Of a DNA stretch of 21,053 nucleotides, positions 374-8,696 are shown in pieces. A program made the translations under genes and the position numbers. Under the pieces are notes generated by a model that searched no databases, had not been told where the DNA came from, and was given only the letters and a program-made list of their open reading frames with translations. The stretch comes from Spirochaetales bacterium (lineage in GTDB: Bacteria; Spirochaetota; Spirochaetia; JABEVK01): assembly GCA_037142615.1 (NCBI GenBank), contig JBAXAI010000054.1:1-21053 (forward strand), in the 5' to 3' direction. Every line of letters begins with the position of its first letter. Position 1 is the stretch's first letter.

Positions 374-1105
374 ATGGATGTTGATTCGAACCAAGTGCCG
401 GAAGGCCTATTCACCCGTAGCCTGGAAGTATCAACTCAGGAGATCCATGATTGGTTTGCCAAATCCGAGCCTCAGATTCCCAGGGCGACGGTAAACTGGC
501 GAGTCTACCAAATGGTCAGGTCAGGGCGGCTTGTCAGGGTTCGCAGGGGCAGGTTCAAACCAGGAAACGGTGGAAAGCCAGTCTGGGTCCCCATCGGGTC
601 GAACCATGAAGTAACACGGATACTCAGCGAGGAGTTTCCACTGGCGACGAGTTGCCAGTGGTCGACCGAGGCCATTGGCGAGTTCCAACAGCACGTGTCA
701 TCCAGCCCGTTTGCCATCATCGAAGTTGAAAGAGACGCCCTGCCGGGTGTGTTCTACAGGATCAAGGAGGTCATACCCGACACCTTCCTCGAACCCTCAC
801 GGAAGGTGGTCGAGGAGTACGTCACCGGCCGGAGAAACGTGGTCGTCGTCAAGACGCTGATCAGTGAGTCGCCGCTGTCCGGTTCTGGAGAAAATCGACG
901 GCCCACACTTGAGAAAGTCCTCGTTGATTTGGTCGCGGACAGCGACCTCTTCTTTTACCTTCAAGGTGTGGAATTAGGGACTATCTATCAGAACGCACAG
1001 GCGAAGTACGAACTTCGGATAGACCGGCTCCTCAGGTACGCTCGACGCCGGGGTCGCGAAGGCGAGGTAATCCAACTACTGAACCCACTGGAGACCAGCT
1101 CATGA
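374..1105 (+). CDS. AbiEi-like type IV TA antitoxin / transcriptional regulator (DUF6577-like)
   Basis: 243 aa. N-terminal wHTH-like segment (TVNWRVYQMVRSGRLVRVRRG), C-terminal PTLEKVLVDL and LLRYARRRG motifs. ATGA overlap with the downstream nucleotidyltransferase. Confidence 0.8.
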   Translation: MDVDSNQVPEGLFTRSLEVSTQEIHDWFAKSEPQIPRATVNWRVYQMVRSGRLVRVRRGRFKPGNGGKPVWVPIGSNHEVTRILSEEFPLATSCQWSTEAIGEFQQHVSSSPFAIIEVERDALPGVFYRIKEVIPDTFLEPSRKVVEEYVTGRRNVVVVKTLISESPLSGSGENRRPTLEKVLVDLVADSDLFFYLQGVELGTIYQNAQAKYELRIDRLLRYARRRGREGEVIQLLNPLETSS

Positions 1106-2166
1106 TCTCCGAACATTCCTTGACCGAAGGATGGATCGAGAAGGCATCGGACGCACACGGAGGTGCAGACAAGCATTTGATCGAGCGTGTCATCTGGGCC
1201 CTTAAGCTCCTTGAGGGCCTTGCTCGATCGAAGATCGACTTCGTCTTTAAGGGGGGCACCGCCGTCATGTTGCTCCAAGGAGAGCCCAAAAGATTCTCAA
1301 TCGACATCGATATCCTGGTTCCTCAGATGTTCGATCCCACCGTGAACTTTGACTTGTTGGCGACCAGTCAAGGATTCGCAGGTTGGGAGGAACACCAAAG
1401 GTCTTCCCCTTCGGGAATCGAAAAGCGGCACTTCAAGTTCTTCTTCCGGCCGGTGGTCGAAAATGGAACCGCCAATAGCATGGTATTGCTCGATGTGGTG
1501 GTCGCCGCGTCGCCCTATCTCAAGAAAGTCTCCAGGCCAATCTCCCTGCCCTTCACCCACCAAATTGGCCCTCCGGTCCTCGTGGACGTTCCCTCGGCGG
1601 CCGACCTCCTGGGCGACAAGCTCACAGCTTTTGCGCCCGAAACAACAGGTATACCCTACGTCAAGAACGGCCAAAGTGCCTCGCTTGAGATCATGAAACA
1701 GTTGTTCGACGTTGCAAGGCTCTTCGAGGAAACCGACGACTTCACCACCGTGGGCACAGCATTTCGTCGTGTTGCCACTGCAGAACTCCTCTACCGGGAC
1801 ATGGAGGGAACCGTGGACCGAGTCTTGGAGAATGTTGTCCAGACGGCACTGTGCCTCTCCACCCAGGGTCAGGCTGGTCGGGGCGACTATCGTGAACTAG
1901 TCGAAGGTGCCAGTCGGCTCAGAGCCTACGTCTTCTCAGAGAAGTTTCAGGGAGAGAAGGCCGTGGTCTGCGCGGCTCGAGCGGCCTACTGCGCTGCCCT
2001 AATACGGACCGGCCGGTCGGGACCTCAACGGTACGAGGGACCAGAGCAAGTGAGAGACATGGCAGTCGAAGGACCTTCAGCACCTCGCCTCAAGGGCCTC
2101 AGGAAGGGCAATCCCGAGGCCTACTACTACTGGCATCAGACTGCCGGGCTTTGGGGTGGGGTGTGA
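1102..2166 (+). CDS. AbiEii/AbiGii-family nucleotidyltransferase toxin
   Basis: 354 aa with FVFKGGT...RFSIDIDI, GDKLTAF and KQLFDV motifs typical of AbiEii (DUF1814). Confidence 0.9.
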   Translation: MISEHSLTEGWIEKASDAHGGADKHLIERVIWALKLLEGLARSKIDFVFKGGTAVMLLQGEPKRFSIDIDILVPQMFDPTVNFDLLATSQGFAGWEEHQRSSPSGIEKRHFKFFFRPVVENGTANSMVLLDVVVAASPYLKKVSRPISLPFTHQIGPPVLVDVPSAADLLGDKLTAFAPETTGIPYVKNGQSASLEIMKQLFDVARLFEETDDFTTVGTAFRRVATAELLYRDMEGTVDRVLENVVQTALCLSTQGQAGRGDYRELVEGASRLRAYVFSEKFQGEKAVVCAARAAYCAALIRTGRSGPQRYEGPEQVRDMAVEGPSAPRLKGLRKGNPEAYYYWHQTAGLWGGV

Positions 2167-4584: not shown

Positions 4585-4730
4585 TGAACCAAAGTGGGGG
4601 CGCCGAGGCGGCAAGTCAAGTCGGCCGAGCGAACGGGCGATTCGGCACGCGCCGCTGCAGGCGTTGACTCCCCGGGGAAGATTTTTCTGCAGCGGTTGGA
4701 GTATCCTTGCCGAGATACCCCGGAGGTGAA

Positions 4731-6377
4731 ATGAAACTCGGCGTACTGGTCCTGATGTTTTGCTGCTTCGTTCCTCTGGTCTGGGGACAAGACTTCACCC
4801 AGGGTCTCGACAAGGTGCCTAGGGTTCTGGCCGCCACCTCGGAACCGGCACGACCCAACACCCTAAAGCCGGCGGCCGGCGGATTACCGTCAAGCATCGA
4901 CCTCAGTGCCTTTCTTCCCCCGGTCCGGACTCAGGGGCCGATCGGAAGCTGCGCCGCCTGGTCCACCGTGTACTACGTGCGGACGCTCCTCGAACAGCGC
5001 GAACGCTCTTGGGGGGCTGACGTCACTGAACACGAGTTCTCGCCCCTATTCTCGTACCTTCAGCTCACCGGCGGGCGCAACGAGGGAACCTCGATCACCG
5101 ACCACATGCGCCTGCTCCGCGACCAGGGCGGCGTCAGCCTGGTGGACTTTCCGGTTGTGAACCGGCTCGACCAGCCTCCGCCGGAGTCCCTTTTCACCAG
5201 GCCAACCAACCTCAAGATCGCCAGTTACAAGAGCGTGCCCCGCAAGGACAATTCGGTCGATCTCGACGCTGTACGCAGCCTCTTGGCCGAAGGTAACCCG
5301 GTGGTCGGGGGGTTCGAACTGTTCAGTGACTTCTACAAGTACAAGGGCGGGATCTACCGAACCGTCGAGGGCACCGTGGTGGGCGGCCACGCCATGGCTG
5401 TCATCGGCTACGACGACGACAAGCAGGCCCTGTTGCTGGTGAACTCGTGGGACAAAACCTGGGGAGAACAAGGCAAGCTCTGGCTGTCGTACGAAAGCGT
5501 CAAGGCCATGACCCACAAGAACTACGGCTTTGCCGTCATGTTCGACCAAGTGGACGCACCGCCCGTGGTGGCGCCCCCGGCCGACGTCACCGCTTCCAAG
5601 GGCGCAGCCGAAGAGCAGATTTCGGTCAGCTGGACCGAAGCGCCGGGGGCTACGGGCTACCAGGTGTTCCGCGCCAACAACCAGACACAGAACTGGACCC
5701 TCCTGGCGACCACCCGGGCAGCCCAGTACGCTGACCAACCCCTGCCGCCCGGTGTCAACTACGTTTACGCCATCAAGTCGCTGTCCGGGCCGTCGGCCTC
5801 ACCGAGGGTAAGTGACCTGAGCCCCATCGCCGAGGGTTGGACGCAGAAGAAGAACTCGGCGCCCGGTATTGTGGAAGGCCTCGACGCGGTGTTGTACAAG
5901 GACACGGTGCTCTTGGTGTGGAACGCACTGGCCGCCACTGACCAGTACCAGATTCTCCGCTACGATGCCAGCATCGAAGAGTATCTGTTGCTCGGCACCA
6001 GTAAAGACGCCGTATTCCGCGATCTGGCGCCCTTCGAGAAGGCCGAGACAGCCACCTACTGCATCGTGGCCGTCAACGCGCAGGGAGTGGGACAACCCAG
6101 CGCCCTGACTGCTGTGACCCGAACCGCGCCGCCGTCCGCCCCCGAGCTGAGCCGTCAGGTACCGGCCTTGCTGAAAAAAGCGGCCGACGACAAGGTTGTG
6201 AAGGGCAAAGCCGCCAGCCCCTATCGCGGTACCTTCTATGAACCCAACTGGTTCGATCCGGCCTTCTTGGCGAAGACGTTCAACGACTATGCCACCCAGG
6301 AAAAAGAAGCCTTTGCCCGCTGGAAGGCCAACGATCAAGCAGACTTCGAGGAGTTTCTGAAAAATGACCACCCCTAG
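4731..6377 (+). CDS. Secreted papain-family (C1A) cysteine protease with two fibronectin type III-like domains
   Basis: GGAGGTG RBS before ATG 4731 and a signal peptide. QGPIGSCAAW (Cys codon 4950), GGHAMAVIGY (His 5388), NSWDKTWG (Asn 5442). FN3-like repeats (ISVSW..GYQVFR..YVYAIKS and LLVW..YQILRY..YCIVAVN). Confidence 0.9.
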   Translation: MKLGVLVLMFCCFVPLVWGQDFTQGLDKVPRVLAATSEPARPNTLKPAAGGLPSSIDLSAFLPPVRTQGPIGSCAAWSTVYYVRTLLEQRERSWGADVTEHEFSPLFSYLQLTGGRNEGTSITDHMRLLRDQGGVSLVDFPVVNRLDQPPPESLFTRPTNLKIASYKSVPRKDNSVDLDAVRSLLAEGNPVVGGFELFSDFYKYKGGIYRTVEGTVVGGHAMAVIGYDDDKQALLLVNSWDKTWGEQGKLWLSYESVKAMTHKNYGFAVMFDQVDAPPVVAPPADVTASKGAAEEQISVSWTEAPGATGYQVFRANNQTQNWTLLATTRAAQYADQPLPPGVNYVYAIKSLSGPSASPRVSDLSPIAEGWTQKKNSAPGIVEGLDAVLYKDTVLLVWNALAATDQYQILRYDASIEEYLLLGTSKDAVFRDLAPFEKAETATYCIVAVNAQGVGQPSALTAVTRTAPPSAPELSRQVPALLKKAADDKVVKGKAASPYRGTFYEPNWFDPAFLAKTFNDYATQEKEAFARWKANDQADFEEFLKNDHP

Positions 6378-6708
6378 ACCCGTCCTTGCCCTTGCGACTC
6401 TGGTTTGTTTTCTAGGGGGCTGCGCCAGCCTGCCCGATCGCCCTCCGCAACCCACGGTGCAGGAGTTGCCGACGGGGGACTGGACAGCTGTAGCGCTGAC
6501 TTCTGATGCCGCGACCGAGGTGCAGGCGCGCCTGACGGTCGTTTTGGGTTCCGAACTGCCCGCCGGTGAAGCCCCCGTCGTGCGGGCACTCTACCGTCAG
6601 GTTGTCGCGGGCACCAACTTCCGGGCGCTCGTTGCCTGGCGCCAAGACAAGACTTGGGTCTTCAGGACAGTCGAGCTGTACCAGTCTCTCGACGGCAACT
6701 GGCCCTGA
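6364..6708 (+). CDS. Lipoprotein with cystatin-like signature; putative cysteine protease inhibitor
   Basis: 114 aa. Lipobox LGGC (Cys20), N-terminal G-D-W, QVVAGTNF at aa 79-86. Overlaps the protease gene by 14 bp. Confidence 0.75.
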   Translation: MTTPRPVLALATLVCFLGGCASLPDRPPQPTVQELPTGDWTAVALTSDAATEVQARLTVVLGSELPAGEAPVVRALYRQVVAGTNFRALVAWRQDKTWVFRTVELYQSLDGNWP

Positions 6709-6721
6709 GCCGGTCCCTGTC

Positions 6722-7663
6722 TTACTTCAGCTTCACGAGCTCGACGTCGAACACCAGCCAGGCGTCGGGGGGAATGACCCCGCCCGCGCCGCGGGACCCG
6801 TAGCCGAGCGCCGGGGGAATGATAAGGGTGCGCTTTTCGCCCACCTTCATGTCGAGCAGGCCTTCGTCCCAACCGGCGATCACCTGACCATTGCCGACCG
6901 CGAACTCCAGTGGTTCCCCGCGCGCGTAGCTCGAGTCGAACACCTTGCCGCTGACCAGGCGGCCCTCGTAGTGCGCCGCGATCCCTTGACCTTTCTTGGG
7001 TTTGGCACCCGAGCCTTCGGTACGCACAAAGTAGTGCAGTCCGCTCGCTGTTTCGGTGGACCCTTCGAGCAGGCTCTTCATCTTGCCCTTGGCCTCGTCG
7101 TTGGCGGCGGCGGCCTTGGCTTTGGCCTTTTCGGCATGGCCGGCCAGTTCGGCGTCGAAGGCGGCCTTGGTCACCACGAAGGCTTCGGCGGCGGCTCCAT
7201 TGCGCACGATGGCGATCTTCTCGAGCTTGTCACCGCCGGCGATCTTGTCAACCACGTCTTGACCCTCGACCACGTGGCCGAACACGGTGTGCTTGTCGTC
7301 GAGCCAGTCGGTGGCCACATGGGTGATGAAGAACTGGCTGCCGTTGGTTCCGGGGCCGGAGTTCGCCATCGACAAAATGCCGGGGCCGGAGTGGCGCAGG
7401 CTGGAGTCAAACTCGTCGGGGAACTTGTAGCCGGGGCCTCCGGTGCCCGTGCCTTGGGGGCAACCGCCCTGCACCATGAAGTTGGGAATGACGCGGTGGA
7501 ACTTCAGCCCGTCGTAAAACCGTTTGCCGGTGATGGCACCTTCGGCGAGACCGACAAAGTTGGTGACCGTCAGCGGGGTCTTTTGAAACTCCAGCGCCAG
7601 GACGATGTCGCCTTTGCTGGTGGTGAGAACGGCGTACAGGCCGTCTTGGGTGGTAATGGGCAT
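6722..7663 (-). CDS. Cytoplasmic dual-family peptidyl-prolyl isomerase (cyclophilin-FKBP fusion)
   Basis: [31 protein letters not shown] and [10 protein letters not shown] (cyclophilin); [22 protein letters not shown] and LVFDVEL (FKBP). AAGGAG RBS. Confidence 0.95.
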
Positions 7664-7676
7664 CAGGTCTCCTTGG

Positions 7677-8672
7677 TTATTCCAGAATTCCGAGTAGTTC
7701 TACGGTGAAGATCAGGGGCGCGTTCGGCGGAATCTTGCCCTGCGGATTGCCCCCGGCTCCATACGCGAGTTTGGCCGGGATCACGAGGCGTCGCTTTTCG
7801 CCCACCTTCATGTCGAGCAGGGCCTCGTCCCAGCCTTTGATGACGCGGCCGGTGCCGACGGCGAACTGGATGGGAGTCTTGCCCACACTGCTGTCGAACA
7901 CGAAGCCGTTCCAGAGTTTTCCTTCGTAGGCCACGGTGATGGTCTGCCCGCTCTTGGGTTTACGCCCGTTGCTGTCTTTGAGCACGACGTATTTGAGGCC
8001 GCTGGCGGTTGTTTTGCCGCCTTCGGCTTCCTTGGCGAGCGCGGCGTCTTTCTTGACCAGGAACTCCTGGTTGAGCCGTGCAAAACTTTCGGGGCTCACC
8101 GCGTACGCTTGGGCCTCTTTGCCTTGCCTCAGAATGGTTACTTTGGTCATCGCATCCTTGGGCTGGATCTTGGCCACGACGTCCTGTCCTTTTACCACGT
8201 GACCGAACACGGTATAGCCGCCGTTGAGAAAGCTGGCATTGCCCAGCGTGATGAAGAATTGGCTGCCGTTGGTGTCGGGGCCCGCGTTGGCCATCGACAA
8301 AATACCGGCCGAATCGTGGTTGAGCGTGGCGTCGTACTCGTTGGGGAAGGTGTAGCCGGGGCCGCCACTGCCGTTGCCGTTGGGGTCGCCGCCCTGGATG
8401 ACGAAGCCCGGTTCCACCCGGTGGAACGTGAGGCCGTCGAAGTACGGAGTCCCCGACTTCTTGAGGTTGAGGGAGCCTTCGGCCAGCCCTACAAAGCTCG
8501 CCACCGTGATCGGGGTCTTCTTGTACTCGAGCTGAATGAGAATGTCGCCCTTGGCGATGCTGATGCGCGCGAAAACCCCATCGCCGGGCAGAACGGTGGT
8601 CTGGGCTCCGAGGGGAACAAACAAGCTGGCGATTGTCACTACCAGCGCGGGAAAAAAGTGTCGGTTTTTCAT
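7677..8672 (-). CDS. Exported dual-family peptidyl-prolyl isomerase (cyclophilin-FKBP fusion)
   Basis: Signal peptide [52 protein letters not shown], then [12 protein letters not shown] and LAYG motifs. Confidence 0.93.
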
Positions 8673-8696
8673 CCCGAACAATGTACCCAAGTGGAG

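Follow-up and report, generated by a model that had tools for sequence, protein, structure and literature searches.

A secreted papain-like protease and its overlapping neighbour, a cystatin-like lipoprotein, as a putative enzyme-inhibitor pair in a spirochaete

The stretch of DNA analysed here, 21,053 nucleotides (nt) of a contig from a Spirochaetales bacterium and hereafter called the window, carries on its forward strand two overlapping open reading frames (ORFs), the first encoding a secreted papain-like protease of the C1A subfamily and the second a small cystatin-like lipoprotein, putatively the inhibitor of the enzyme encoded beside it (Table 1). The positions that a preliminary description of this DNA had given for both genes, as well as the 14-nt overlap between them (6364-6377), agree with the list of ORFs and their translations. 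For the protease, the ATG at 4731 was preferred over the listed upstream TTG at 4707 because a Shine-Dalgarno-like GGAGG precedes it, and a second motif of this kind, GAGGAG, lies within the 3' end of the protease gene ahead of the inhibitor start; this internal site and the overlap of the reading frames appear compatible with translational coupling. A scan for sigma-70-like promoters found none within or between the two genes, and terminator-like sites in the same DNA were no more frequent than in shuffled sequence. Upstream the pair is flanked by a divergent VTT/DedA-like gene and a TerC/DUF475 gene, and downstream by two convergent genes encoding cyclophilin-FKBP fusions; it therefore resembles an isolated two-gene unit.

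The catalytic domain of the protease is intact, as the preliminary description had held on the strength of its Gln, Cys, His and Asn motifs. Peptidase_C1 is recognised well above the Pfam cut-off, and Gln68, Cys74, His220, Asn238 and Trp240 are all present in the domain, with Gln68, Cys74, His220 and Trp240 invariant in an alignment of eight proteases. The nearest solved sequences are cathepsin B-like enzymes and the bacterial cysteine protease 3ois, the latter being the best full-length match (E = 3.3e-12, residues 47-258); a match to Peptidase_C47 remained below threshold (E = 0.04), and a search of NCBIfam gave no match for either the protease or the lipoprotein. No other Peptidase_C1 match occurs in the 4.27-Mb assembly to which the window belongs. 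An I29-type propeptide is typical of the papain subfamily, though not obligatory, and the window protease is without one: no propeptide family, I29 included, matched it in Pfam at E ≤ 1, and about 30 residues lie between the putative signal peptide and the mature protease domain. Two FN3-like domains had been proposed to follow the catalytic domain, of which the first is supported by a Pfam fn3 score exactly at the cut-off and the second is not, since residues 375-470, a beta-rich and possibly FN3-like region, gave no Pfam fn3 match, had GH85_C as their best hit and showed weak likeness to the first FN3 domain (BLASTP E = 0.21). Homologues of about 800 residues (aa) contain four fn3 stretches.

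The product of the second gene bears a lipobox, LGGC, from which acylation at Cys20 is predicted, and the invariance of this cysteine in all of the aligned relatives supports the lipoprotein nature assigned to it earlier. The sequence elements that had drawn attention to it are likewise all present in the 114-aa protein, namely the N-terminal glycine within TGDW (Gly38), QVVAGTNF (residues 79-86) and the terminal tryptophan within DGNWP (residues 110-114). Across the 17 aligned sequences the only invariant residues of the mature domain are Gly38, Gln79 and Gly83, so that conservation is concentrated in two of the three elements through which cystatins classically make contact, and in the comparison of a six-sequence profile with the PDB, Gly38 is aligned with the GG of solved tick cystatins. 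At the other end, the window protein and its three closest relatives stop at, or a few residues past, an xGxW motif and have no fifth strand, and the other protease-linked relatives keep the fifth strand, without the tryptophan. A local C-terminal truncation of the inhibitor was considered and rejected, as the three closest homologues end at the same site or, in the case of P0007, six residues beyond it.

Table 1. Coordinates of the protease-lipoprotein pair in the window, and of genes for the NTR/TIMP-like protein at other protease loci.
Feature	Position	Strand	Remarks
Shine-Dalgarno-like GGAGG	4722..4726	+	4 nt before the protease ATG; read from sequence
Protease ORF	4731..6377	+	ATG 4731, TAG 6375-6377, 548 aa
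Predicted Sec signal peptide, residues 1-19	4731..4787	+	cleavage after VWG (MKLGVLVLMFCCFVPLVWG/QD); by eye, no predictor
Peptidase_C1 catalytic domain, residues 53-255	4887..5495	+	Pfam E 7.3e-14, 52.8 bits (cut-off 20.7)
Cys74	4950-4952	+	inside the Peptidase_C1 domain
His220	5388-5390	+	inside the Peptidase_C1 domain
FN3 domain, residues 282-357	5574..5801	+	Pfam fn3 E 2.2e-5, 25.0 bits, the same as the cut-off
Second beta-rich region, possibly FN3-like, residues 375-470	5853..6140	+	weak: GH85_C E 0.13
Shine-Dalgarno-like GAGGAG	6348..6353	+	within the protease 3' end, 10 nt before the inhibitor ATG; read from sequence
Lipoprotein ORF, putative cognate inhibitor, cystatin-like	6364..6708	+	ATG 6364, TGA 6706-6708, 114 aa
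Lipoprotein signal peptide, lipobox LGGC (Cys20)	6364..6423	+	all 17 aligned relatives have Cys20
Gly38, N-terminal binding segment (TGDW)	6475..6477	+	invariant in 17 of 17
QVVAG loop of the first hairpin, residues 79-83	6598..6612	+	Gln79 and Gly83 invariant, Ala82 conserved at least 90%
Trp113, penultimate residue	6700..6702	+	invariant in the 4 closest sequences; not in other protease-linked relatives
~150-aa NTR/TIMP-like protein gene, L059	7089-7538	-	
~150-aa NTR/TIMP-like protein gene, L058	5731-6186	+	
~150-aa NTR/TIMP-like protein gene, L069	5150-5590	+	
~150-aa NTR/TIMP-like protein gene, L070	7439-7963	-	

A homologue search with the 114-aa protein alone returned only itself, and phmmer against PDB sequences found only BamD, through signal-peptide matches. 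Against 1.84 billion representatives, phmmer gave 15 matches at E ≤ 1e-3, including three close single-domain lipoproteins with 38-42% identity to the window protein (P0003, P0005 and P0007), which are singletons on contigs of about 1-1.3 kb, too short for gene neighbourhood, and four proteins (P0006, P0010, P0012 and P0014; E 3e-7 to 5e-4) that pass the Pfam Cystatin cut-off. The six-sequence profile returned 26 matches from the PDB at E ≤ 10, of which 24 are cystatin-fold proteins and the remaining two are BamD, matched over the signal peptide only; its eight best matches are all cystatins, with E from 3e-5 (3l0r) to 7e-4, and the alignment with 3l0r spans the GG motif through QVVAG. An AlphaFold (AF2) model of the lipoprotein built from 17 sequences has a mean predicted local distance difference test score (pLDDT) of 89.3 and consists of a short strand (41-42), a helix (48-64) and three long strands, the fifth strand being missing because the protein ends at residue 114. 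Cystatins occupy the top rows of a Foldseek search with this model (best E 6e-3, probability 1.00; none at E ≤ 1e-3). In a VIA-align comparison with 48,161 chains the best match was 6i1m, a type-1 cystatin (Z 8.0, root-mean-square deviation 2.7, 76 aligned residues), and cystatin-fold proteins, latexin included, made up 14 of the 16 top rows, the cystatin matches ranging from Z 8.0 to 6.4, where values near 8 are middling. Both the profile and the structure searches of 6364-6708 thus rank cystatins first, as the preliminary description had anticipated, and sequence and model together identify the lipoprotein as what appears to be a cystatin-superfamily member that is divergent, scores below threshold and is short at its C-terminus. 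Since cystatin-like proteins of this type fall below the Pfam threshold, they are likely under-annotated.

The wider set of related proteins includes larger forms. Two to eight tandem cystatin-like domains occur in the metagenomic proteins P0006, P0009, P0010, P0011, P0012, P0013, P0015 and P0016; P0009, P0011, P0012, P0013, P0015 and P0016 have an invariant lipobox cysteine, and P0010 has a C-terminal hydrophobic anchor. P0014, also among the phmmer matches, is a eukaryotic multi-domain protein of the same tandem cystatin type.

The association with a protease gene recurs in the phylum, in which cystatin-like genes were sought with the single protein in 41 relatives and with a profile in 401 sampled genomes. 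Two matches at E ≤ 1e-3 (G324 and G313) cover profile positions 2-38 and 1-56, which is the signal-peptide end only, and were set aside as not cystatin-like. Nine cystatin-like loci in eight genomes were obtained, and eight of the nine directly adjoin a homologous C1A protease gene on the same strand, with a spacing that runs from the 14-nt overlap of the window to a gap of 168 nt. In five loci the protease comes first (the window, G000; G075, where the gap is the longest; the two loci of G431, with gaps of 13 and 14 nt; and G207, with a gap of 21 nt), and in three the inhibitor does (G007, with a 10-nt gap, and G009 and G006, each with a 4-nt overlap). The ninth locus, G402, encodes a classical cystatin (Pfam Cystatin, 33.8 bits) and has no C1 gene in the 12 kb of DNA examined around it. 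The preliminary description had allowed that homologues might prove never to be linked to C1A genes; a survey of gene neighbourhoods for a C1A gene together with a QxVxG lipoprotein instead finds the link at these eight loci.

Presence and absence of the two genes coincide as well. Within the window's family (12 genomes) the same four genomes hold both genes and seven hold neither, so that the module appears to be accessory and to travel as a pair; one further family genome, 80% complete, gave a weak partial protease match only. The window's genus is represented by four other genomes, three of which are among the seven without either gene; the window genome itself has a single C1 gene and a single gene for a cystatin-like protein. 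When 27 protease domains were placed in a tree, those linked to cystatins fell into two clades with good support (99/98 and 98/98), and the proteases of the window and of G075 lie on long branches of uncertain placement, that of the window having a length of 1.76. The cystatin-linked protease of G075 (L011/L022:1023-2267 (-)) stops shortly past the catalytic His motif, without the Asn-Ser-Trp region, and in view of its very long branch (2.4) it may be truncated or degenerate.

The fit between the two proteins of the window was assessed by predicting the complex of protease residues 45-275 (8-row alignment) with the mature inhibitor, residues 30-114 (17-row alignment). Three runs gave values of 0.90, 0.89 and 0.90 for the interface score ipSAE, against 0.01 for the best of three controls; the same mark is reached by 116 of 157 solved complexes and by 2 of 215 mismatched pairs, counts that hold only roughly here, the alignments being custom ones. 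Between runs at least 96% of the contacts agree, and the partner has a pLDDT of at least 89. On the protease the contacts gather around Gln68-Cys74, His220 and Trp240, and on the inhibitor around residues 32-41 and 78-85; those of lowest error join inhibitor residues 37-38 and 79-83 with protease residues 67-75, 119-120, 194, 219-221 and 239-240. In the predicted complex Thr37 and Gly38 touch Cys74, His220 and residues 119-120, and the lowest expected error belongs to the contacts that inhibitor residues 79-83 make with protease residues 67-75, 220 and 239-240. The modelled interface is the canonical cystatin wedge over the catalytic Cys74/His220 and the walls of the cleft, and it places on these two residues both the QVVAG loop, for which docking in the cleft had been foreseen, and the Gly38 segment.

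Taken together, the gene anatomy, the cystatin homology and cystatin-like modelled fold, the conserved linkage, the co-occurrence and the confident predicted interface, all computed here, make it likely that the lipoprotein is a cognate, membrane-tethered inhibitor of cystatin type, which would hold the neighbouring prodomain-less, secreted papain-like protease inactive near the envelope of the producer. The pair would then constitute a bicistronic module of a secreted C1A protease without prodomain and the cystatin-type inhibitor that belongs to it. Both proteins would be exported by the Sec pathway, the protease by a type-I signal peptide and the inhibitor as a lipoprotein which, acylated at Cys20, would be anchored in a membrane on the side of the periplasm or of the cell surface. 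Lacking an I29 propeptide, the protease would be active once folded, and we propose that one anchored inhibitor molecule binds one molecule of it, in the manner of a stefin on papain, with the Thr37-Gly38 segment and the QVVAG hairpin wedged into the cleft above Cys74 and His220. Synthesis of the two proteins might be kept balanced by the 14-nt overlap together with the ribosome-binding site inside the protease gene. What the arrangement would probably achieve is latency of the enzyme and self-protection of envelope proteins, until the protease is released or exceeds the inhibitor.

Several observations weigh against this interpretation. Inhibition and binding are themselves predictions from sequence and model. 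The Pfam family Cystatin (PF00031, cut-off 22.2 bits) has no match to the window lipoprotein at E ≤ 1, nor to anything in the window's whole genome at that threshold, and the seven other protease-linked relatives all score below the cut-off (best 21.1). The lipoprotein ends in its second loop without a fifth strand, which is unusual for cystatins and could affect stability. The preliminary description had placed the terminal tryptophan in a second hairpin, and this does not hold, as the protein ends there with no strand to follow; Trp113 lies outside the confident contacts of the predicted complex, to which that end contributes only residues 106 and 109. Moreover, complexes of cystatins with papain have already been solved (3ima, 1yvb, 8v57), and the score of the predicted complex may therefore reflect likeness rather than the affinity of this particular pair. 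A search for related loci with the four closest sequences gave, besides two weak matches (L074 and L077), three interpretable cystatin-like loci outside the phylum (L075, L076 and L078), which have no C1 gene in the DNA available, although two of them lie on contigs of about 2 kb and so carry little information. Within the phylum, the protease domain occurs in 130 of the 401 sampled genomes (E ≤ 1e-10) against 6 of 401 for the cystatin-like gene; none of 20 further protease loci, each with about 5 kb of flank, has a cystatin-like ORF, and 13 of the 20, some of which reach contig ends, show no recognised partner. The inhibitor is dispensable for the protease family at large. As to expression, the evidence is one 162-nt contig within the inhibitor gene from a metatranscriptome, which may be carried-over DNA and gives a weak hint that the inhibitor gene is expressed.

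Two further details of the loci from this search can be added. L073, a contig of 1899 bases in a public metagenome-assembled genome with an unrelated taxonomic label, encodes a protein 100% identical to the window inhibitor over 114 residues and has the flanks of the window, with the end of the protease gene on one side and the first isomerase gene on the other; it is not independent evidence and is probably a binning artefact. L076, on a 2.2-kb contig from outside the phylum, carries at 1044-1853 (+), in tandem and beside a GroEL gene, two genes for single-domain cystatin-like proteins that have ordinary signal peptides.

The cystatin lipoprotein could instead be directed at foreign C1A proteases, those of grazing protists, animals or other microbes, its place beside a C1A gene being incidental. 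Such a role is the published view for bacterial cystatins and stefins (PMC2784779, PMC3594739), and the chagasin lipoprotein characterised in Pseudomonas, which is surface-anchored, is reported to inhibit plant proteases (bioRxiv 10.64898/2026.06.02.729523). Several relatives of the lipoprotein are multi-domain proteins of repeated cystatins, one of them eukaryotic, and the phylum contains in G402 a classical cystatin without a linked protease, both of which would suit a foreign target. We nevertheless consider this alternative improbable. Chance hardly accounts for linkage at eight of nine loci when lineages differ in the order of the two genes, and protease and inhibitor genes have been gained and lost together within the family; the window stretch comes mainly from freshwater and lake metagenomes, with no pointer to a host, and the predicted fit to the neighbouring enzyme is specific when set against the controls. 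A foreign target and a cognate one are not mutually exclusive.

An equally slight chance may be given to the view that the lipoprotein is a folding helper or a membrane dock, that is, a prodomain in the form of a separate protein that tethers the enzyme to the cell surface, with inhibition as a by-product. The short distance of about 30 residues between signal peptide and mature domain, with no I29 propeptide, would leave room for such a helper, the partner is predicted to be lipid-anchored through Cys20, and the tight coupling of the genes suggests equal amounts of the two proteins. However, most homologous proteases, which are also without a recognised prodomain, show no such partner in the DNA examined, and binding in the active-site cleft, as seen in the predicted complex, is the behaviour of an inhibitor. 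The potempins, inhibitors encoded beside secreted peptidases, are moreover reported not to contribute to secretion or maturation (PMC9890683). Such a helper function and cognate inhibition do not exclude each other.

Very unlikely, finally, is an interbacterial toxin-immunity module in which the protease is delivered to competitors and the lipoprotein protects sister cells: its layout of a small protective gene beside a secreted hydrolase gene, the accessory distribution of the pair within the genus and the long branch of the window protease would agree with it, but the enzyme has an ordinary Sec signal peptide and FN3 but no delivery domain, there is one copy per genome and no polymorphic cassette, and the genes around the pair contain no domains of type VI or type VII secretion systems (T6SS, T7SS), contact-dependent inhibition (CDI) or Rhs, nor any other toxin-delivery domain, so that the effector-immunity analogy drawn in the preliminary description finds no footing in the flanks.

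Cognate inhibition by a linked lipoprotein may be part of a broader pattern, as related proteases are accompanied by other small proteins. In G069 and G054 a chagasin (I42) lipoprotein gene stands directly upstream of a homologous C1A-FN3 protease (Pfam E 7e-17 and 3e-16; 61.9 and 60.0 bits), and these genes (L053:4158-4628 (+) and L054:5756-6190 (+)) overlap or abut the start of the protease gene. Each is preceded by a gene for a conserved protein of about 250 aa without a Pfam match (L053:3399-4148, L054:4995-5759). The Inhibitor_I42 family (PF09394) matched neither the window lipoprotein nor anything in the window genome. In the tree of 27 domains the chagasin-linked enzymes are sister to one of the cystatin-linked clades with moderate support (84/82), a placing that would be compatible with a swap of partner type between related proteases.

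A third kind of neighbour was found in family f43, in which the protease domain is present in all 75 genomes (E ≤ 1e-10). Here a conserved secreted protein of about 150 aa, without a Pfam match, is encoded directly upstream of a C1A-FN3 protease of about 800 aa, in all 22 f43 loci among L030-L052 and in two of three further f43 genomes, 24 of 25 in all. A model of the protein (pLDDT 83.8) is most like NTR/TIMP domains, with Z 9.8 for agrin NtA, 9.4 for N-TIMP-3 and 7.2 for TIMP-1. TIMPs carry a cysteine at the mature N-terminus, and the NTR/TIMP-like protein has none there. On the basis of the model it may represent a new kind of cysteine-protease partner or inhibitor. The presence of either a chagasin or a TIMP/NTR-like protein upstream of related proteases suggests a position reserved for a protease partner. 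In two f76 genomes the protease is followed on the same strand by a secreted MORN-repeat protein of about 270-300 aa (L062:4730-5632 (-), L064:7479-8288 (+)). We therefore put forward, as a tentative proposal that has somewhat more against it than for it, that secreted spirochaete C1A-FN3 proteases without prodomain are governed by linked inhibitors of three unrelated folds, independently recruited to one operon slot: a truncated cystatin lipoprotein, a chagasin lipoprotein and, within a single large family, a TIMP/NTR-like OB-fold protein, the last of which would form a new class of cysteine-protease inhibitors. Were this so, cystatins would hold a native bacterial regulatory job and the protease family would amount to a natural experiment in inhibitor swapping.

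The window stretch was found, at least in part, in 20 runs from 10 studies, all labelled as freshwater or lake metagenomes, one of which may be the window's own source. A contig of 1406 nt from an independent freshwater study spans the junction of the two genes (5226-6631) with zero differences, and in a lake run 12 substitutions fall in the protease, the inhibitor being unchanged where it is covered (6372-6592); uncovered stretches in runs X4 and X7 carry no meaning. As for the surroundings of the pair, the two cyclophilin-FKBP fusion genes lie in tandem at 6722-7663 (-) and 7677-8690 (-), the second with an N-terminal hydrophobic leader. Further upstream, at 374-2166 (+), a DUF6577 gene overlaps the gene of an AbiEii nucleotidyltransferase toxin by 4 nt, and these two look like a type IV toxin-antitoxin or abortive-infection pair. 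The 4.27-Mb assembly also contains three genes for the flagellar-sheath protein FlaA, a marker of spirochaetes, which speaks for a spirochaete as its source.

Among the genera listed by Kordis and Turk, none but Brachyspira is known to be a spirochaete. Their survey describes bacterial stefins and cystatins as rare and patchy, regards bacterial cystatins as unlikely regulators of bacterial C1 enzymes, arguing against an endogenous role, and names chagasins as the natural inhibitors of bacterial C1 peptidases (Kordis and Turk 2009, PMC2784779). A review of 2012 repeats the host-directed view and calls for experimental data (PMC3594739). The preliminary description knew of no characterised papain-cystatin pair; likewise, a literature search that mostly lacked subscription journals yielded no account of an operon joining a bacterial cystatin to a C1A gene, so that such absence is unproven. 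Bacterial cystatins have so far been read as borrowed eukaryotic genes acting against host proteases. If our reading is right, the conserved pairing, met in a freshwater lineage that lives free, would mean that the cystatin superfamily has an endogenous role in bacteria, and it would account for the safe export of a C1A enzyme that has no propeptide. Chagasin and TIMP-like partners at the same position could in turn lead to new inhibitor scaffolds and allow unrelated folds to be compared on one active site.

With the stefins and cystatins (I25, PF00031) the window protein has in common the N-terminal glycine, the first hairpin QxVxG and, in the model, a helix packed on an antiparallel sheet, and in its predicted docking the catalytic Cys and His are covered by the same two elements as in type-1 cystatins. 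It differs from them in that it falls below the Pfam threshold, is predicted to be lipid-anchored, has no fifth strand and shares an operon with a bacterial C1A gene. Staphostatin and staphopain, and Spi and SpeB, likewise combine an inhibitor gene with the adjacent gene of a papain-fold cysteine protease; these inhibitors, however, reside in the cytoplasm, differ in fold and target enzymes of families C47 and C10. The fold of chagasin/ICP (I42, PF09394) is immunoglobulin-like and unrelated to that of cystatins, and chagasins occur here as lipoproteins upstream of homologous proteases, whereas the window protein has no I42 match. Potempins act on metallo- and serine peptidases. Not named in the preliminary description, they are nevertheless the closest precedent at the level of the system: in Tannerella forsythia, genes for small lipoproteins of 98-132 residues directly adjoin those of the secreted KLIKK peptidases, and the membrane-anchored products block the linked enzyme with loops inserted into its cleft and protect the outer membrane of the producer (PMC9890683). 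In the same source potempins are OB-fold or eight-stranded beta-barrel proteins and are always encoded upstream (PMC9890683), whereas the fold here is cystatin-like and the gene order varies. By analogy, the window pair would be potempin-like as a system and not a member of the potempin protein family.

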